NCBI GenBank assembly: GCA_049289035.1
Contig: JBAQIV010000048.1
Coordinates: 1 to 24,000 of the forward strand
Direction of reading: 5' to 3'
From: Candidatus Saccharimonadales bacterium
GTDB taxonomy: Bacteria; Patescibacteriota; Saccharimonadia; Saccharimonadales; Saccharimonadaceae
DNA: 24,000 bases
Both the position numbers and the translations under genes were made by a program. A model generated the notes under the pieces. The model searched no databases. It had not been told where the DNA came from and saw only the letters and a program-made list of their open reading frames with translations. Shown in pieces: positions 2,472 through 24,000 of this stretch. Every line of letters begins with the position of its first letter. Positions within the stretch are counted from its first letter, which is position 1.

Positions 2472-3560
2472 TCACTGATGACACAATTTTTTGCAGTACG
2501 CCGCGATGTTGGCATTGTGCTCGGCTTCGGTACGGGCAAAATGCGTTGTGCCGTCGTCGCCTGCGACAAAATACACATAATCACCGGCCGCCGGTGCGGC
2601 CACAGCCTCGAGTGCCGAGAGATTGAAGTTGGAAATCGGTCCGGGAGGTAAGCCTTTTACGCGGCGGGTGTTATAGGGCGAAGGATCGTTGACGCTGGGC
2701 GTCCGCCCCTCTTTGGCGGCGATATAGAGAAAGGTTACGTCCGACCCAAGTGCTATATTGTCGCGTAGTCGTTTTAAAAATACCTGGGCTACTTGCGGCT
2801 GAACTTTGGGGTCGGAGACTTCTTTTTGAACGATTGAAGCAAGGATAATACCTTGGCGAAGCGTCAGTCCTTGCGCTTGCAAGCGTTGTTCGAATTTCCC
2901 CTCGGCAACGACTCGCTCCATTTCACGAAAACTCATCTTGAGCACCGCCTCGAGCGGATCGGCCGTCGATATGCCATAGGTGTCGGGATGTATGTAGCCC
3001 TCAAGTGATGTACCAGCTGGTTTGTCGGTAAAAATCGTAGACACATATGAGGCGGCAAACGCTGTTTTCACTTCATTTGGTGTAAAACCTTGATCGGCGA
3101 GACTGCCGCGTATGGTTGGGTCGGCCAGCTGTTCAAGCGTGAGACCGGGCAGGATAATAACACTGTATTTGTCTGTCGAGCCATCGACCAAACCAGCTAC
3201 AATTTCTGCAACTGATTGCGATTTTTTCAAGGCATGACCGCCAGCACGAAGACTACTCTTTGTACCAGTGAGTAGTGTATAGATTTCAAACGCCATGCGA
3301 TTTCTAATGAGATGGTGTTCCTCAAGCAGCCGCCCAATATCTGCCGCTGTGGCGCCTTCTGGTACAACAATACGTACAAATGTAGTGGCCGATCTATCGA
3401 CCGGGCTCAGCGCAAAGGCATACGAGGCAGCCGCAAGCAACAAAAACAAGCTGAAGCCGCTCGCAATAGCGATAATTTTTTTGCGATACGATGGTCGTCT
3501 AATCTTAAGTTGGCCTGGCGATGGCGGTAACGACGGACCGCGTAGCAAGTCGCCAATCAT
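2472..3560 (-). CDS. mltG: Endolytic murein transglycosylase MltG (YceG family)
   Basis: 362-aa ORF with an N-terminal TM helix (IIAIASGFSLFLLLAAASYAF). YceG-like motifs LASIVQKE and YNTRRVKGLPPGPISN are present. Its start overlaps the ruvX stop by 4 nt. Confidence 0.85.
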   Translation of the reverse strand: MIGDLLRGPSLPPSPGQLKIRRPSYRKKIIAIASGFSLFLLLAAASYAFALSPVDRSATTFVRIVVPEGATAADIGRLLEEHHLIRNRMAFEIYTLLTGTKSSLRAGGHALKKSQSVAEIVAGLVDGSTDKYSVIILPGLTLEQLADPTIRGSLADQGFTPNEVKTAFAASYVSTIFTDKPAGTSLEGYIHPDTYGISTADPLEAVLKMSFREMERVVAEGKFEQRLQAQGLTLRQGIILASIVQKEVSDPKVQPQVAQVFLKRLRDNIALGSDVTFLYIAAKEGRTPSVNDPSPYNTRRVKGLPPGPISNFNLSALEAVAAPAAGDYVYFVAGDDGTTHFARTEAEHNANIAAYCKKLCHQ

Positions 3561-3961
3561 AGCGTCTCCAGATAATCCTGGAGTATGATAGCTGCTGCAT
3601 GCGCATCGACATCGGCCTTGCTATACGGCAATCGACCAGAGTCTAGCTGTGCTTCGGCGACAACTGACGTCAGAGATTCGTCTTGAAAACTATACGGCAC
3701 ACCGAGTGAAGAGATGTGCGCCTCGACAAATGCTTCAACCTGGCGCGACTGTTCGGTCGCTTCACCAGACTGGTTGCGCGGGTAACCGACGATGATACGA
3801 TTGATCTGCTGCGTCGTAATCAGTTCTTTGAGTGCATCTATCTCGTTGCCGTCGACATCGATCGTCATGAGGGGTACTGCCAATTTCACACCATCGCGCG
3901 CCAGAGCCACCCCTATGCGGCGTGTGCCAACGTCGAGACCTAAGAAATTATTTCTTGGCAT
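3557..3961 (-). CDS. ruvX: Putative pre-16S rRNA nuclease / Holliday junction resolvase-like RuvX (YqgF)
   Basis: 134-aa ORF with the N-terminal RNase H-fold motif LGLDVGTRRIGVA. Size is typical of YqgF. It is adjacent to mltG, as in many Gram-positive genomes. Confidence 0.85.
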   Translation of the reverse strand: MPRNNFLGLDVGTRRIGVALARDGVKLAVPLMTIDVDGNEIDALKELITTQQINRIIVGYPRNQSGEATEQSRQVEAFVEAHISSLGVPYSFQDESLTSVVAEAQLDSGRLPYSKADVDAHAAAIILQDYLETL

Positions 3962-5576: not shown

Positions 5577-6841
5577 ATGCGTAATATTCGATTGAATTTT
5601 TCTTTGATAGTTTCGTTGTCGCTACCGATAATTGTATCATATCCAACCCGCAGCAAACCCATGGCCGTAATGTAGGTGTGGTCGTTGGCTTGACCGGTCA
5701 GATCGCGAATACCCACCACGTCGTCGGGCGAGATTAAGTGCACCGTTGGTCGTTTGGTAAACGGCAGGCTCTTGTACCAGTCTTCGCGCTGGAGTGCCTC
5801 TACGAGCGGCTTAAGGCTCGCACCGCCGCCACAGAGTAAAATGCGAGGCGGTAAGTGATCAACTGAGTCAAATTCACTGAGTGCCAGCTCGACACCGCCT
5901 ATCCAGACCTCAAGCGTTTTATCGATCGATTTGTGTAATTTCTCGGCAACTGTTTGTTTCAGCTGCGGCTCACTCAGGTTAACTTTGAGTTTTTCAGCGT
6001 CGTCATAGCTTATGTCCATATCGGTCGCAATAGTGCGGGTAAAACTGCGTCCACCAATGCCAAACATTTTTGTGCCTTCCACGCCGCCGTCATTGACGAC
6101 AGCGATGTCGGTCGTGCCGCCACCGACGTCGGCCAATATAGCCGTGAAGGTGCTGCTAGCATCGGTACCAAGTACGCTACGACTGACGGCAAACGGCTCT
6201 GCCGCCACCGCAATGAGGTCGAGGTCGAGTTCGGTAGCAGCTCGTTCTAGCGCGCCAATATGCACCATGGGTGCAAATGCTGTGTAGATCTGTATAGCAA
6301 CGTCTTTGCCTTGAAAACCAATCGGATTACTGACTTTATAGCCGTCAATGTGAATGCTCACGAGCGCTGAGTTAACCAGTTTTACTTCCACGTCACGATT
6401 GCCGGTCTCAAGCGCAATCTGTGCTTGAGCTTTTGTCTGGGCACGTTCTTGGACTTTTTCAATAATTAGCTCCATCTCAGAAACGTCCAGCGGCCGATCA
6501 GGCTGGGGACGACGGTAACGAATCGTCTGAGTGACGCCTTTCACTAGTTCACCGGCAATACCAATCACCGCCCGTTTGCCCTGCAAACCAGCCTGCTCCT
6601 CCGCAGCGGCTAGTGCTGTTTCGCAGTTTCGCACCACGCCAGCAATGTCAGCAATCGCGCCACTATGCATGTCATCAACTGATTGATGTGCTCGTCCAAC
6701 GCCAATTATCTCTATGTCGTCGTGTTTTATCCGCGCAATCAACGCCTTGACGTACTCGGTACCGATGTCCAACCCAACGACAATCGAATCGGTATCGGTC
6801 GATCGACCAGGCAATTTGCTCTTTATTTTATCTAAAATCAT
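5573..6841 (-). CDS. ftsA: Cell division protein FtsA-like actin-fold ATPase
   Basis: 422-aa ORF with actin/Hsp70-fold phosphate motifs VGLDIGTEYVKA and DVGGGTTDIAVV, followed by GIGGRSFTRTIA and AEKLK. LLCGGGASL is present. The basic/hydrophobic C-terminal tail (IKEKFNRILRI) is consistent with a membrane-targeting helix. Confidence 0.7.
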   Translation of the reverse strand: MILDKIKSKLPGRSTDTDSIVVGLDIGTEYVKALIARIKHDDIEIIGVGRAHQSVDDMHSGAIADIAGVVRNCETALAAAEEQAGLQGKRAVIGIAGELVKGVTQTIRYRRPQPDRPLDVSEMELIIEKVQERAQTKAQAQIALETGNRDVEVKLVNSALVSIHIDGYKVSNPIGFQGKDVAIQIYTAFAPMVHIGALERAATELDLDLIAVAAEPFAVSRSVLGTDASSTFTAILADVGGGTTDIAVVNDGGVEGTKMFGIGGRSFTRTIATDMDISYDDAEKLKVNLSEPQLKQTVAEKLHKSIDKTLEVWIGGVELALSEFDSVDHLPPRILLCGGGASLKPLVEALQREDWYKSLPFTKRPTVHLISPDDVVGIRDLTGQANDHTYITAMGLLRVGYDTIIGSDNETIKEKFNRILRI

Positions 6842-6849
6842 TATGATTG

Positions 6850-6879
6850 ATTATATAACAATACTGCATATGCTCGCAA
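6850..6879 (-). promoter_or_regulatory. Putative sigma70-type promoter for the ftsA-like operon
   Basis: The minus strand reads TTGCGA (6879-6874), an 18-nt spacer, TATAAT (6855-6850), then only 8 nt (CAATCATA) before the ATG at 6841. No Shine-Dalgarno sequence is present. Confidence 0.5.
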
Positions 6880-6922
6880 ATCTGCATAAACCGCGTCTGA
6901 AGAGTCGTTCTTTAAGCAACCA

Positions 6923-7063
6923 CTATACCATAGCCGCTTTGATACGGCGGATGCCCGCTGAACTGGCTTCTTCTTTGAGGATTTTGTACGTTTTGCCATT
7001 GGGGGTGCCGTCATCGTTCTGGGCCAACTGACCAGTGTGATCGACATGCGGGCCGCCGCAGAT
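6923..7063 (-). other. alaS: Conserved 3' continuation of the alaS reading frame beyond an in-frame TAA
   Basis: Same frame as alaS. After the TAA at 7064-7066 it translates as [46 protein letters not shown], ending at TAG 6923-6925. This contains the AlaRS editing-domain CGGxH zinc-ligand motif and the G(I/V)RRI(E/K)A motif. Confidence 0.8.
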
Positions 7064-8938
7064 TTAGAGACTCGCCAGGTGCTCACCTTCACCCATCTGG
7101 TAGACTTTCACCGTGTCACCATAGCGTTCGCCAAAGGGACCAATGGCGCCCATATCGAGCGCTGTCTGCGTGGGATATTCTTTGAATGTAACCGGTAAAT
7201 CGGCTGCTATCCAGCCATTGACCAGTGCTTCGGCACGCGCAATCTCCTCGGGCGTCATTTTACGGTCGAGGTTGAAGTCAAAACGCAGGCGCTCTTCGGT
7301 AATGTTACTCCCGTGCTGGCGCAGTTCTGGACCAAAAATTTCACGCAGAGCCGACTGCAGCAGGTGCGTCCCCGTGTGGTAACGTTTGTGTTGCATAGTG
7401 TGGCCGCCGAGGCCGCCTTTGAACACACCTTTTGCGGCGGTCTTACTCCGTTCACGCTGTTCGACCATTTTGGCGTCAAATTGTTCGCGCCAATTTGCTG
7501 GTAACTTGATGTCGCGCTTAAAGCACTCCTCGACACTAAGTTCAACCGGAAAACCGTACGTATCATAGAGCGTAAATAGAATCGCGCCAGCCGACGAATC
7601 ACATTCATCATCAGAAGGGGCCCGCCCCTTCTCGGGTGCCGCTGCTTCGCTGCGCGGCAGCCCGCCTTCCCCCGACTCATCGGCAGTAGCCGCTGAGTCG
7701 CCCGCGCTTCGCACGGGTGCGAATGCTTTTTCAAGCATTCGCAGGCCCTTCCTGAGCGTCTGGCGGAAGGTCTTCTCTTCCTTCACCAGCACAGCGATCA
7801 CGTTTTCACGGTTTTCTTTCACCTCAGGGAAATCTGCTTCGTATATGTCAGCGATGACCGGCACGATGGCCTCCAGAAAATTCTGCTCGATGCCCAGTTC
7901 AAACGCAAAGCGAATCGCCCGCCGCAGCAAACGGCGCATGACATAGCCTTGCTCTTTGTTGCTCGGCGTCACGCCGTCAACCGCAAGGAAGGTCGCCGCA
8001 CGCAGGTGGTCGGCAATCACGCGCATGCTTACAGTGTGGCTGTCGTAGTTTTTGCCACTTATGCTTTCGAGTTTCTCAACAATCGGCCACATGATCGATA
8101 TTTTAAACATGTCTGGACTATCTATCGCAGCCATTGCAATACGTTCCAACCCACCGCCAAAATCAATATTTTTGTTCGGTAAATGCTCAAAGCCTTTTTC
8201 GGTGCGGTAATACTGCATGAGGACGTTGTTACCGATCTCTACAAATCGGCCACAATCACAGTTCGGGTGGCATTTCTCTCCATATGAGGTGTCATGATCT
8301 ACAAAATCGAACTCATAGAATATCTCCGTGGACGGGCCGCCAGGTTCGCCGACAGGCATATCTTTGATCTTGCCGTTACGACACCACCAGTTTTTGCTTG
8401 CATCATAATAAAATACCCGTTCACCAACCTGCATACCTCTCTCGGCTGCATCTTGTTCGGATCCTAACTCGGCGTCGGTTGCCTCGACTCCAGCATCTTC
8501 GAAAAGTTTCAACCAAATATTTGCAGACTCGGTATCTTTGGGGATGTTAAAATCTTTGTCACCTATAAATGCCGTGACGTACAGCTTGTTTGGATCAAGC
8601 CCGATGATTTTAGTGTAAAATTCAAAGATCCACGGCAACTGCTCGGTCTTGAAGTAATCACCCAGCGACCAGTTACCCAACATCTCGAAAAATGTATCGT
8701 GCCGATTATCGCCTACTTCTTCTATATCTTGAACACGAATCACTGTCTGCGAATCAACCAGTCGCGCACCATGCGGATGTTTTTCGCCCAGCAGATAGGG
8801 CAGTAGCGGCTGCATACCACTGCCAGTAAACAGCGTCGTGGGGTCATTGTCTGGCACTAGGCGCGCCCGCGGGATCACCGCGTGGCCGCGTTCGGCAAAA
8901 AATTGCAAATAAGCTGTGCGTATGTCTTGTGCATTCAT
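7064..8938 (-). CDS. alaS: Alanine--tRNA ligase (class II), interrupted by an in-frame TAA before the last 46 codons; no C-Ala domain
   Basis: 624-aa ORF. The N-terminus MNAQDIRTAYLQFFAERGHAVIPRARLVPDNDPTTLFTGSGMQ is typical of AlaRS. LYDTYGFP and the editing-domain HTGTHLL (HxxxH) are present. The ORF ends ...GEGEHLASL-TAA exactly where the family has S-x-E-L-C-G-G-x-H. Confidence 0.9.
   Translation of the reverse strand: MNAQDIRTAYLQFFAERGHAVIPRARLVPDNDPTTLFTGSGMQPLLPYLLGEKHPHGARLVDSQTVIRVQDIEEVGDNRHDTFFEMLGNWSLGDYFKTEQLPWIFEFYTKIIGLDPNKLYVTAFIGDKDFNIPKDTESANIWLKLFEDAGVEATDAELGSEQDAAERGMQVGERVFYYDASKNWWCRNGKIKDMPVGEPGGPSTEIFYEFDFVDHDTSYGEKCHPNCDCGRFVEIGNNVLMQYYRTEKGFEHLPNKNIDFGGGLERIAMAAIDSPDMFKISIMWPIVEKLESISGKNYDSHTVSMRVIADHLRAATFLAVDGVTPSNKEQGYVMRRLLRRAIRFAFELGIEQNFLEAIVPVIADIYEADFPEVKENRENVIAVLVKEEKTFRQTLRKGLRMLEKAFAPVRSAGDSAATADESGEGGLPRSEAAAPEKGRAPSDDECDSSAGAILFTLYDTYGFPVELSVEECFKRDIKLPANWREQFDAKMVEQRERSKTAAKGVFKGGLGGHTMQHKRYHTGTHLLQSALREIFGPELRQHGSNITEERLRFDFNLDRKMTPEEIARAEALVNGWIAADLPVTFKEYPTQTALDMGAIGPFGERYGDTVKVYQMGEGEHLASL
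7613..7717. other. GC-rich, hairpin-dense in-frame extra segment inside alaS
   Basis: Consecutive hairpins: AGAAGGGGC/GCCCCTTCT (7613-7632); GGG-TGCCGC/GCGGCA-(G)-CCC (7634-7663); CGACTCA-x-CGGC/GCCG-x-TGAGTCG (7673-7700); CCCG/CGGG (7701-7717). The segment encodes the low-complexity peptide PVRSAGDSAATADESGEGGLPRSEAAAPEKGRAPS, which canonical AlaRS lacks. Confidence 0.6.
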
Positions 8939-10888: not shown

Positions 10889-12042
10889 CGCCCCCGCTCC
10901 TGTGCAATCACTTCAGATATGATAGTCGCGGCAGTGTCTATATCTGCCTCAGTGGTCGCACGGCCAAAACTACAGCGCACACTACCATCGGCAAGCGCAT
11001 CGGACATAGCAATTGCCGTCAGTACATGTGAGCGCGTGCCGCGATTGGCGGCGCAGGCCGAACCAGTCGCAACCTGTACGCCCCGTTGATCAAGCGCGTA
11101 GACCACTCGCTCACCATCAAGACCGGGCACCGAAAAATGCAATATGTGCGGGGCGCGGCGTTTCGGGTGGCCATTGATCACAATGTCAGCAATACGCTCA
11201 GACAGTGCACGCTGCAAACGATCGCGCAGACTAGTAAGTCGGTGACTTTCTGCCTTGCGCCCCGCCGTCGCCAGCATCAATGCTTCGGCAAATCCCACGA
11301 TGCCCGCCACATTTTCGGTCCCACCACGGACGCCTCGCTCTTGCCCGCCGCCATACATGAGCGGTGTCACCTGCATGCCGGTGCGCAGCCACAATAACCC
11401 CACGCCTTTTGGTCCATAGCATTTGGCCGATCCGAGTGTCATCATGTCGACACCCAGACGAGACACAGAGATATCGAGCATGCCAGGTGCTTGCGACGCA
11501 TCGGTATGAAGCCAAATAGGCAACACCTCGCCCATCGACAAACGACGTTGACGCTCGGTTTCAATAACAGCGGCAATATCGCGAAGCGACTGTACAGTGC
11601 CTAGTTCGTTATTGATCATACCCACACTGACAATCGTCGTCGTCGAAGTTATAGTCTGTTGAACTGCTTCCGGCGTGACAACACCCCGTTCATCGACCGG
11701 TATCCAGTCGACTTCACCTGCTTCCGCGGCACGCACCACGGCCGCATGTTCAATACGGCTGGTCGCAATACGCCCACCATAGTGAGCAACTATGCCACGC
11801 AGCGCTAGGTTGATCGATTCAGTCGAGCCAGAGGTAAGTATGATCTCAGTCGGACGCACCCCCAGCGCCATGGCTAGTTGTTGACGGGCTGTTTCATAGT
11901 CACTTCGCACGGTAGTCGCGGCACGATAGGCCGATGACGGATTATAAAACTGCTGCGAAAAATACGGCTCCATGCGAGCAAAAACCCGCGGGTCACACGG
12001 GGTAGCAGCTGCATAATCGAGGTAAATACTCCGCTCACCCAT
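10885..12042 (-). CDS. Cysteine desulfurase (class V aminotransferase, NifS/IscS/YrvO-like)
   Basis: 385-aa ORF with IYLDYAAATP at the N-terminus. TSGSTESINLA, HTDASQA, a PLP-lysine region SAKCYGPKGVG, GGGQERGVRGGTEN and an active-site loop ATGSACA are present. Confidence 0.85.
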   Translation of the reverse strand: MGERSIYLDYAAATPCDPRVFARMEPYFSQQFYNPSSAYRAATTVRSDYETARQQLAMALGVRPTEIILTSGSTESINLALRGIVAHYGGRIATSRIEHAAVVRAAEAGEVDWIPVDERGVVTPEAVQQTITSTTTIVSVGMINNELGTVQSLRDIAAVIETERQRRLSMGEVLPIWLHTDASQAPGMLDISVSRLGVDMMTLGSAKCYGPKGVGLLWLRTGMQVTPLMYGGGQERGVRGGTENVAGIVGFAEALMLATAGRKAESHRLTSLRDRLQRALSERIADIVINGHPKRRAPHILHFSVPGLDGERVVYALDQRGVQVATGSACAANRGTRSHVLTAIAMSDALADGSVRCSFGRATTEADIDTAATIISEVIAQERGR

Positions 12043-12045
12043 AGC

Positions 12046-12468
12046 TTATATTGTAGCAGGCTGAGCAGTGAGTGGCTGGCCCGAGGTGGGATCACGGCGA
12101 TACACGTTACGCATGACGCGTTCGTAATAGGCCTGCACTGCGGCCGAAAGGTTGTGTAATTCTTCGCCTTCGATAAACGAATACATACCGTTGTCTTGAA
12201 CTTTCAAGATGCCGCTACTGTGTAGCTCATACCGAGTCGTGCGCGATTGTTTTTTGTTGTGTTCGTCTTTCCACTCTTCGTACCACACCCAGGTGTGATC
12301 GTCGAGACGAAAAAATTCACGGCGATGACCAGCCGCAACGGGGCCAAATATCGTCGCGCCTTGTTCGCTCTCGATCTCTATCAACTGGCGTTTGGTCAAA
12401 TGTTTTGGCTGATAGGGTGTTGCCGTCTGACCAGTAAGTAGTGTTGTGATTTTCTGGAGCGCCTTCAT
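12046..12468 (-). CDS. Hypothetical protein (140 aa)
   Basis: ORF with a 4-nt overlap to the upstream ORF. Composition looks globular (WVWYEEWKDEH..., YYERVMRNVY). No recognisable motif. Confidence 0.6.
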   Translation of the reverse strand: MKALQKITTLLTGQTATPYQPKHLTKRQLIEIESEQGATIFGPVAAGHRREFFRLDDHTWVWYEEWKDEHNKKQSRTTRYELHSSGILKVQDNGMYSFIEGEELHNLSAAVQAYYERVMRNVYRRDPTSGQPLTAQPATI

Positions 12469-12884
12469 GACGACCTGCCTTTGTTGATTTGCTGGAGGTG
12501 CGTAACTCGGCAGGCTTCGAGAAATGCTGTAATTTGAGTAATACGCAGGCGGGCAGCTGTATCTGTCTCACCACTGGGTGACGTTTCCGTTGAGGCTTGA
12601 GCATGGCTAGCCGCTTCCTCTGTCATAGTACCTAACAATGCCGGGTCAAACGCATGGTCAGGACTGTAGAGGTTGATGGTTCGTTTTTCGAGGGCACGCT
12701 GCGTCAGAAACGGTGCAGCGTCGCTCGTACCATACGATTCATTGACGGCTTTGCGGGCCAGATCAACAGAAAATACCGACTCGGCACCCGCTGCCTCATC
12801 GGTATATATACGCTCTGGCGCACCACGGCCAGGAATCATAAATGTATTGGGGACGGTTGCTAAAGCCACTGTCAATCTCTCCAC
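12465..12884 (-). CDS. Hypothetical protein (139 aa; start uncertain)
   Basis: The longest ORF starts at GTG 12884. An alternative GTG at 12869 is preceded by GGAGAG with a 7-nt spacer. No recognisable motif. The C-terminal third is overlapped by another open frame (12317-12604), so the coding call is moderate. Confidence 0.5.
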   Translation of the reverse strand: MERLTVALATVPNTFMIPGRGAPERIYTDEAAGAESVFSVDLARKAVNESYGTSDAAPFLTQRALEKRTINLYSPDHAFDPALLGTMTEEAASHAQASTETSPSGETDTAARLRITQITAFLEACRVTHLQQINKGRSS

Positions 12885-12918
12885 AAATTAAATAGTTAGT
12901 GGGTGTTTATGGTGGTGT

Positions 12919-13815
12919 TTATTTGAGATGAAATAGATGCGTGGCACTAGCCTCTGTTGCACGCGAGAGCTCCTGGAGATTGATAGACTGGAGATTCGCA
13001 ATATGTTCGGCAACATGCTGTAATAGTGCTGGCTCATTGACTTTACCACGATGAGGCACGGGCGTCAAGTACGGCGCATCTGTTTCGAGTAGAATTTTTT
13101 CATAAGGGATAGCTCGGTAAACCTCTTGGCGGTCACGCGCAAACGTGGCGATACCGTTGACGCCTATCAGGAGGCCACGTGATAGCGCCGCTTCCATATT
13201 TGACAAATTGTCGGTAAAGCTGTGCAATACGCCCCTGAGGCCCTTGTATTGGTCGAAAATAGGCCAAAAATCATCCCAGACCGATGTGCGCCCCTCTAGG
13301 GACGATGCCTCACGCACATGGAAAATAACCGGCAAATTATGCTCGAGTGCTAGTTCAATCTGCGCATGAAGCATGTCGATCTGCTGCTCGCGCGGGGAGT
13401 TGTCGTAGAAGTAGTCGAGACCGATTTCACCGATTGCAACGATGCTCGATATTCGATGTGCGCCAGCCGCATCTGCAGCCTCTCTACTAAAAGTGACTCT
13501 GCTTCCCGCAGTAGGCGCACTGTTCTTTTCAGTGCGCCGGTCACTTTTACGTAGAGAGGCTGCAGATGCGGCTACTATTGCACGAATATCATCTATCGCT
13601 TCCAACCCTCGCACCGCATCATGCGGGTGTAATCCGACTGCCGCCCAAGCGTTGGCGTGCGCCGCGGCAAATTCAACCGCCTCGCGCGACGTCACCTCGT
13701 CTGTCCCGACCACAATCATACGCCCGACGCCAACAGCGAGCGCCCGCTCATACGCCCCCTCGCTGTCGAGGTAACTCGCTTCTTGGATATGACAATGTGT
13801 GTCGGTGAGTGTCAT
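12919..13815 (-). CDS. TatD-family metal-dependent hydrolase/DNase carrying a ~36-40-aa in-frame insertion
   Basis: 298-aa ORF with family motifs DTHCHI, GLHPH, AIGEIGLDY, VIFHVREA, GVLHSF and LETDAPYL. About 60 residues separate HP from IVAIGE, versus about 20 in E. coli YcfH as I remember it. Confidence 0.85.
   Translation of the reverse strand: MTLTDTHCHIQEASYLDSEGAYERALAVGVGRMIVVGTDEVTSREAVEFAAAHANAWAAVGLHPHDAVRGLEAIDDIRAIVAASAASLRKSDRRTEKNSAPTAGSRVTFSREAADAAGAHRISSIVAIGEIGLDYFYDNSPREQQIDMLHAQIELALEHNLPVIFHVREASSLEGRTSVWDDFWPIFDQYKGLRGVLHSFTDNLSNMEAALSRGLLIGVNGIATFARDRQEVYRAIPYEKILLETDAPYLTPVPHRGKVNEPALLQHVAEHIANLQSINLQELSRATEASATHLFHLK
13465..13573. repeat. 109-nt near-perfect palindromic element (33-bp outer stem enclosing two hairpins) inside the tatD-family CDS
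   Basis: 13465-13487 is the exact reverse complement of 13551-13573. After a bulged C at 13550, 13488-13497 pairs with 13540-13549. Inner hairpins lie at 13499-13511 and 13514-13538. Confidence 0.9.
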
Positions 13816-22791: not shown

Positions 22792-24000
22792 CTACTGTTG
22801 ACCGTATAGAAAATACAACACGCCAAGAACCGAGCCAGTCAAGAACAATACGCCAGCTATTATAAACCAGACGACCTTCGAGACACCGTGTTTGGCAGCA
22901 CCAGCCTCGAGCGGCTTGTGATAGGTATCGGCGTCGAAGACTGGGTGTGACTGTGTATCGGTTTTCTCTTCTGCAGCGCGGTACTGTGGTGCAATCGAGG
23001 TTGCAGCAGTTGGGGTTTTGGCTGGAGCATCGGCCGGCTTACTGTCTGATTCTGCTGGCACTGCTTCACCAACTGTTTCGTTAGCTTCTACAGCCATGAT
23101 CTCTTCGCCAAATTCTTTTGGCATCGCTGCTGGTGGCATGTCCGATGGTGCGCTCAAGGTGTCAGATGCAGGTGTCGAAGCGTCGGCATTGAGCGGGCGT
23201 TTTTCAACTGGTACATCAGGTATAAATGGCGTTTGGTGTGATGTCGGCACTGTCGGTTCAGTTGTTTCACTTGGTTCTGGGGTCGCTTCAGACATGGTGG
23301 CGTCAGAGGGTTGTTCGGGTGTTTCGAGACCATGCTCAGCCAGGCTAGGTTCAGCTTCTTCAGTCATGACGTCACCGTCTGCCGGCTGGTCGTCAGGGCT
23401 ATCAGAAATAGACGCATCGGTCGGTGATGGCTCTACCTCTTCATCTACCATATTTGGCATATCTGGCGAGGTGACGGTCTCAGTCGCACCATCACTGATG
23501 GGGGCTTCTTCTTCAACTTTAAAGTCAGCTGAGGGTGCCAAAGCAACGCCACTCCGAGTTGGCATAGGCCGTGGCGTCATATCGGTATGACCAGCAGGTG
23601 GTACGACGTCCATAAATCGACCTCGTTTGTGAGGAATGGTGTCAACTTTGACAAGTTCAGCCTCTGGAGCTTCCATAAGCGTATTTTCTTGCTCGGGAGT
23701 TGTGGTAACTGGTTGCTTAGCCGGTTCTTCAACTACAGGAGAACTTTGGTCAAGTGACTCATCAGTCGTCTCATGGCTTTCTTCATGAAATGCGTCGAGA
23801 GTTGGCACGGCGGGCAAATCTTCTGGGGTCAATGCAGCATCGACTGTAGACTCTGGCGTAGTAGACTGCTCGGGTTCAAGTGAAACAGGAGGCTCATCGA
23901 TAACCGACTGCTCTGGTTCGGTAATCGGTGGCAGCACTGGAGCCGATGAAGTGTCGTCGGTAGCATCTGTCACAGCACTATCACCTGGTTCATCACTCTG
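22792..24000 (-). CDS. Highly acidic Pro/Thr/Glu/Asp-rich protein with a C-terminal TM anchor (5' end not determined)
   Basis: Stop at 22792. The C-terminal hydrophobic helix is VVWFIIAGVLFLTGSVLGVLYFLY. The rest is low-complexity and acidic. The nearest in-window start is GTG 23973, but the frame stays open with the same composition (QSDEPGDSA) to the window edge. Confidence 0.6.
   Translation of the reverse strand, partial: QSDEPGDSAVTDATDDTSSAPVLPPITEPEQSVIDEPPVSLEPEQSTTPESTVDAALTPEDLPAVPTLDAFHEESHETTDESLDQSSPVVEEPAKQPVTTTPEQENTLMEAPEAELVKVDTIPHKRGRFMDVVPPAGHTDMTPRPMPTRSGVALAPSADFKVEEEAPISDGATETVTSPDMPNMVDEEVEPSPTDASISDSPDDQPADGDVMTEEAEPSLAEHGLETPEQPSDATMSEATPEPSETTEPTVPTSHQTPFIPDVPVEKRPLNADASTPASDTLSAPSDMPPAAMPKEFGEEIMAVEANETVGEAVPAESDSKPADAPAKTPTAATSIAPQYRAAEEKTDTQSHPVFDADTYHKPLEAGAAKHGVSKVVWFIIAGVLFLTGSVLGVLYFLYGQQ

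Follow-up and report, generated by a model that had tools for sequence, protein, structure and literature searches.

The AlaRS gene (alaS) of a Saccharimonadales MAG carries an in-frame TAA that is either a sequencing or assembly slip or a mutation of very recent origin, rather than a new reading of the genetic code. Apart from the base that creates this codon, position 7066, the gene shows no damage and is under selection, and no recoding machinery was found in the genome. On balance, we favor the reading that the T at 7066 is a consensus error or an unrepresentative allele and does not belong to the organism's working gene.

An in-frame TAA divides the editing domain of an otherwise ordinary AlaRS

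The window, by which we mean the whole stretch of 24,000 nucleotides that was analyzed, lies on contig C48 of a MAG of 880,249 bp in 77 contigs that is ~91% complete and ~2.8% contaminated, with 49.9% G+C. When translated on the minus strand, positions 6923-8938 yield 624 residues, a stop, 46 residues, and a second stop. The coding strand around the first of these stops reads GGT GAG CAC CTG GCG AGT CTC TAA ATC TGC GGC GGC CCG CAT GTC GAT CAC. The features of the locus are as follows.

7064..8938, minus strand: alaS frame as written, with ATG at 8938, 624 codons and the premature TAA; it encodes the aminoacylation domain and the first half of the editing domain
7064..7066, minus strand: the in-frame TAA (codon 625), which stands at the invariant Glu of S-x-E-I-C-G-G-P-H
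7066..7066, minus strand: the private base, T on the coding strand (A on the plus strand) and G in 9 of 9 outside conspecific contigs covering 7066
6923..7063, minus strand: 46-codon in-frame tail and natural TAG (6923-6925), the remainder of the tRNA_SAD editing domain
7364..7378, minus strand: HTGTH, residues 521-525, the HxxxH half of the editing-site metal-binding motif, retained in the truncated product
7046..7060, minus strand: CGGPH, residues 627-631, the CxxxH half, equivalent to E. coli C666/H670 and missing from the truncated product
6935..6955, minus strand: GIRRIKA, residues 662-668, close to the natural C-terminus; G-[IV]-R-R-[IV]-K-A in relatives

The role of HxxxH as an editing-site metal-binding motif is established in the AlaRS and ThrRS literature. 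The alaS product matched PF01411 (tRNA-synt_2c) over residues 5-408/409 (E=9e-108, 361 bits against a cut-off of 30.3), indicating that the class II AlaRS catalytic core is present, and AlaRS catalytic fragments in the PDB matched it with E=1e-76 to 1e-68. PF07973 (tRNA_SAD) matched residues 610-666 only when the stop was replaced, and this match straddles codon 625. As written, the 624-residue product is without PF07973, and the TAA splits HTGTH from CGGPH so that the two halves of the editing site do not lie on one polypeptide; the conspecific 671-residue form, P0121, carries both half-motifs, with PF07973 at 610-666.

These Pfam and motif positions bear out the preliminary description, according to which a product terminated at the TAA would keep the aminoacylation domain and HxxxH and lose the Cys/His half. 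Its account of a frame that stays open for 46 codons past the TAA, with CGGxH and GIRRIKA, as far as TAG 6923 is likewise confirmed by translation, while its size for the intact gene (670 codons) needs correction, since 6923-8938 holds 671 sense codons. The C-Ala domain of canonical bacterial AlaRS (~870 aa) is absent, and the protein and all of its relatives end a few residues past GIRRIKA; this absence characterizes the clade and has nothing to do with the TAA.

A low-complexity insert was also observed at window positions 7583-7720 (alaS residues ~407-450), between ...EKAF and AGAILFTLYDTYGFP. The nearest species (P0002, at locus L057) has unrelated sequence of similar length at this site, and the insert is missing in most relatives, whose alignments break at ~residues 404-450.

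Relatives keep the glutamate codon

In all 40 related genomes searched, alaS is one long open frame, which is shortened by a contig end in one genome. AlaRS identity to these 40 relatives and to database homologues named alanine--tRNA ligase is 55-83%, the closest homologues in public sources being alanine--tRNA ligases of Candidatus Saccharimonadales / Saccharibacteria, and 671 aa falls within the range of AlaRS lengths in the clade (~617-710 aa). The gene end was read in 28 of the 40 relatives, and Glu occupies the position equivalent to the TAA in all 28, within S-[FLIRM]-E-[IVL]-C-G-G-[PS]-H. The codon is GAA in 17 of them and GAG in 11, and CGGPH is invariant except for one CGGSH. The preliminary description had placed the TAA at 7064-7066 on the Glu of the AlaRS motif, which both the coordinates and the 28 relatives confirm, and the comparison with sister-genome alaS that it proposed returned GAA in conspecifics and GAA or GAG in these relatives.

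Among known systems, the short AlaRS of Saccharimonadales/CPR (tRNA-synt_2c plus tRNA_SAD, no C-Ala) shares with this gene PF01411 (E ~1e-107), length, and 55-83% identity, as well as PF07973 once the stop is read as Glu, whereas the MAG frame is cut at codon 625 within tRNA_SAD and its CxxxH half is missing. The gene is an ordinary short, C-Ala-less Saccharimonadales AlaRS, and the lesion in it amounts to either an error or an ordinary nonsense point change.

The tail downstream of the TAA evolves as coding sequence

In a comparison with P0002 (L057), which at 83% identity represents the nearest other species, 44 of the 46 tail residues are identical, and the codon differences in the tail comprise 10 synonymous and 2 non-synonymous ones; in the 100 codons upstream of the stop, 39 differences are synonymous and 15 non-synonymous. 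No frameshift and no second stop occurs in the tail before TAG 6923, and no difference between conspecific haplotypes falls within it. The conspecific 671-aa gene ends at the same TAG (6923-6925), 81 nt short of the ftsA-like gene, in agreement with the earlier proposal that TAG 6923 is the true gene end.

The open frame of the tail is not due to chance. Its conservation shows that purifying selection maintained the tail as coding sequence practically up to the present, and because the tail is undecayed, the TAA either arose extremely recently or is not biological. A decaying pseudogene was rejected given that no further lesion and no relaxed selection is seen downstream of the TAA, and separate translation of the tail was rejected because its first start codon, TTG at 7027, comes after CGGPH and could not restore the editing site.

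The TAA base is private to one MAG

The 90%-identity protein cluster of the truncated product has one other member only, P0121, which is 671 aa long and residue-for-residue the same as the two pieces in the window, with Glu at 625. Contigs encoding P0121 come from eight independent runs (SRR29974357, SRR28060502, DRR685534, SRR29061993, SRR29974358, SRR31968663, SRR22386961, and SRR22386960), and their ungapped alignments to the window show 99.05-99.99% identity. Codon 625 is GAA in all eight (G at coding-strand base 7066), although this count is partly circular, as the contigs were fetched by exact match to the intact protein and the search could return GAA alleles only. With GAA and an otherwise identical protein in these eight outside contigs, the single GAA-to-TAA change in an otherwise intact gene that was first proposed is upheld. 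The truncated 624-aa protein is recorded from one NCBI contig, the MAG's own, and an exact look-up, which would miss contigs breaking inside alaS, gave no Logan, ENA, or JGI record of it. A DNA pattern over the site with N at the variable base found no match in JGI metagenome contigs and GTDB genome contigs, a result that is uninformative on either allele.

Further conspecific contigs were gathered via four other proteins of the MAG. Contigs from SRR29974356, SRR29974357, ERZ27268725, and others are 100% identical to the MAG over 5-15 kb stretches of its contigs C22 and C29. In the nearest strain, that of SRR28060502, contig L037 differs from the MAG at 7066 alone in 8,016 bp, and the four contigs of this run (L037, L047, L056, and L067) together match at 23,707 of 23,708 bases, the one mismatch again being 7066. 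The outside contigs cover 52,448 MAG positions, and the MAG stands alone at 19 of these. Eighteen lie in 3641-3866 and 11970-12343, where only divergent haplotypes give coverage or no same-haplotype contig aligned. The nineteenth is 7066, which is covered by nine contigs, none of which agrees with the MAG. Position 7066 is the only one of the 52,448 covered bases at which the MAG differs from contigs of its own haplotype, and no indel separates them either. The TAA base is private to one MAG, and the lineage of this MAG is effectively clonal with strains in several runs.

Within alaS, 7066 is the sole difference in three of the eight P0121 contigs. The other five (L038, L039, L041, L042, and L043) carry a second haplotype in which 20 further alaS codons (21 bases) differ, all of them synonymously. 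Sixteen of these codons are clustered in 309-358 (window 7865-8012), three fall in 26-31 (8846-8861), and one is at 225, a clustering that looks like short recombination tracts imported between strains.

Two observations concern another assembly of the species, GCA_964593035.1. Window positions 3505-3546 align to its contig CAZQJG010000081.1 (L054) in two pieces with a short discontinuity, suggestive of a rearrangement or a small indel in the interval between the mltG-like gene and the gene next to it. In its contig CAZQJG010000002.1 (L066), recG is broken into three ORFs of 265, 163, and 207 aa and the PIN/TRAM gene into two of 166 and 107 aa (locus coordinates ~6470-7270 and 11295-13295); both are single genes in the MAG and in Logan contigs. 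GCA_964593035.1 appears to contain frame-breaking errors or real pseudogenes.

A consensus error or unrepresentative allele is the favored explanation

The TAA comes down to a single G-to-T difference on the coding strand at base 7066, confined to this MAG, and the species' real alaS is an ordinary intact 671-codon gene with aminoacylation and editing domains and no C-Ala. If the T is a consensus error or an unrepresentative allele, it would have a technical source (base-call, PCR-duplicate, assembly, or polishing) or would be a transient harmful allele caught in the consensus. The cells would make a normal full-length AlaRS, with no need for recoding, suppression, or programmed read-through, and we infer that T is not the dominant allele in the sampled cells.

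The gene is essential and single-copy; a lone change at one of its invariant active-site codons resembles changes that escape selection, such as errors, and the absence of the allele even from a strain that is identical at every other compared base favors an artefact or an unrepresentative allele. However, since no other mismatch or indel was found against same-haplotype contigs over ~50 kb, a random consensus error is also unlikely. Short-read assemblers usually need several concordant reads, and this favors an allele that is genuinely present in some or all of the population. Because the GAA allele makes a TCGA site, a systematic error at a methylated motif was considered as well; we rejected it by inference, as no other base differs over ~50 kb in which many TCGA sites are expected by chance.

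The strongest rival explanation is a genuine nonsense allele that arose very recently and predominates in the population that was sampled, in which case the strain makes a 624-residue AlaRS with intact aminoacylation and broken editing. We regard this as a credible reading that falls somewhat short of being probable. The truncated editing domain, keeping HxxxH and losing CxxxH and the last 46 residues, would probably misfold, and the strain would charge tRNA-Ala and be unable to clear Ser-tRNA-Ala or Gly-tRNA-Ala. Technical error is not a cheap assumption for an assembly that is otherwise error-free against same-haplotype contigs; nevertheless, the allele is seen in no other assembly of the species, nor in the strain that is identical at all other compared bases. 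The undecayed tail would fit a mutation only generations old. The 40 of 40 relatives with one long frame and the full motif at 28 of 28 gene ends speak against this reading, as does the finding that all other within-species changes in alaS are synonymous. With alaS single-copy and AlaX and DTD not found in the ~91%-complete genome, the cost of the allele should be high. Conversely, Saccharibacteria live as epibionts in small populations that pass through bottlenecks, where drift can raise the frequency of mildly harmful alleles, and N-terminal AlaRS fragments reportedly retain aminoacylation, an observation said to go back to Jasin, Regan and Schimmel in 1983. An editing-dead AlaRS is also survivable in E. 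coli, where the AlaRS C666A strain is viable despite slow growth and the misincorporation of Ser for Ala (PMC7603204).

If the allele is real, it would resemble E. coli C666A and mouse sti A734E in the loss of the Cys/His half and in the expected Ser/Gly mischarging of tRNA-Ala. Those are point substitutions in a folded domain, whereas here 47 domain-core residues would be missing, and the allele may not exist in cells. For the earlier prediction of an editing-defective AlaRS to hold, the allele must be both real and dominant.

Back-up editing genes were not found in the genome

The preliminary description had suggested a search for a free-standing AlaX protein that could compensate, but none was found in the ~91%-complete genome, the two other tRNA_SAD matches being ThrRS genes. 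Nor did the genome contain a second copy of alaS, which is represented by one gene in the MAG, or any match to DTD (Tyr_Deacylase).

The two ThrRS genes (C70:199-1992, L001, and C72:346-1794, L002) are 53% identical, alike in the N-terminal editing part and divergent in the catalytic core. One is complete (597 aa) and the other is cut at the end of a 1.8-kb contig, and the pair represents either a true paralogue (e.g. an antibiotic-insensitive spare) or a mis-binned contig. Contigs C36 (3,129 bp) and C62 (4,151 bp) share 94.9% identity over all 3.1 kb of C36, which reflects either a repeated region or two co-binned strain variants; the latter would fit the contamination estimate of 2.8%.

Recoding and read-through do not account for the TAA

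That full-length AlaRS is made from the TAA allele via read-through, suppression, or reassignment is very improbable, even though the frame past the stop is intact and conserved and near-cognate decoding of UAA occurs at a low level in all bacteria. Genome-wide, TAA is the commonest terminator, ending 229 of the 603 open frames of at least 200 codons, and it also ends neighboring genes, since the stops at 3948, 8983, and 9237 in the window are all TAA, just as the preliminary description had it. None of the 45 tRNAs called by ARAGORN has a suppressor anticodon (UUA, CUA, or UCA), an absence that is not absolute in a ~91%-complete genome, and the MAG encodes two class-I release factors (RF-1 family, 364 and 378 codons). 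A genome-wide codon-usage scan, which was crude and insensitive, gave no convincing case of another in-frame stop with coding-like flanks, its top candidates being adjacent same-frame genes or antisense shadow frames; as far as such an insensitive scan can tell, the assembly does not appear to be visibly riddled with nonsense errors. TAA reassignment, which had been judged unlikely from the outset, was rejected because TAA is not rare as a terminator and, as far as the crude scan shows, does not recur at conserved sense positions, no matching tRNA was detected, and the release factors are kept.

Programmed read-through fared no better. The stop at codon 625 is not conserved, being GAA in 8/8 conspecific contigs and GAA or GAG in 28/28 relatives, and the 100 nt starting at the stop show no folding advantage over shuffled sequence (MFE -19.7 kcal/mol compared to a shuffle mean of -24.5, z=+1.52), so that programmed read-through was rejected for an unconserved stop with no stimulatory structure downstream. 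Of the explanations listed in the preliminary description, a consensus error and a recent nonsense variant both stand, while read-through is without support from structure, tRNA, or conservation. The case recalls CPR code 25 (TGA=Gly; Gracilibacteria, Absconditabacteria) in that a stop stands at a conserved sense position in a CPR-group genome, but here the codon is TAA, which is the main terminator, the case is single, there is no matching tRNA, and conspecifics have GAA.

Among the tRNA calls, ARAGORN reported a tRNA-Asn with the unusual anticodon ATT at C4:11931-12002 (minus strand), beside a normal tRNA-Asn(GTT) elsewhere, which could be a false call or an atypical tRNA.

Implications

The locus is best annotated as one alaS gene at 6923-8938 with a suspect base at 7066; labels such as truncated synthetase, pseudogene, or altered genetic code are not warranted. 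That the TAA is genuine and dominant, and that the strain lives with an editing-truncated AlaRS with AlaX and DTD not found, seems unlikely to us; it would be an example from nature of an epibiont with a reduced genome that tolerates Ala-to-Ser/Gly mistranslation, with a parallel in the editing-deficient synthetases of Mycoplasma. To our knowledge, AlaRS is the one synthetase in which editing has otherwise been retained nearly everywhere. If the T were real and dominant, it would represent a very young natural knockout of AlaRS editing for which no trans-editing back-up (AlaX or DTD) was found and, while still one strain-level mutation and no new system, would be relevant to translational fidelity in reduced genomes.
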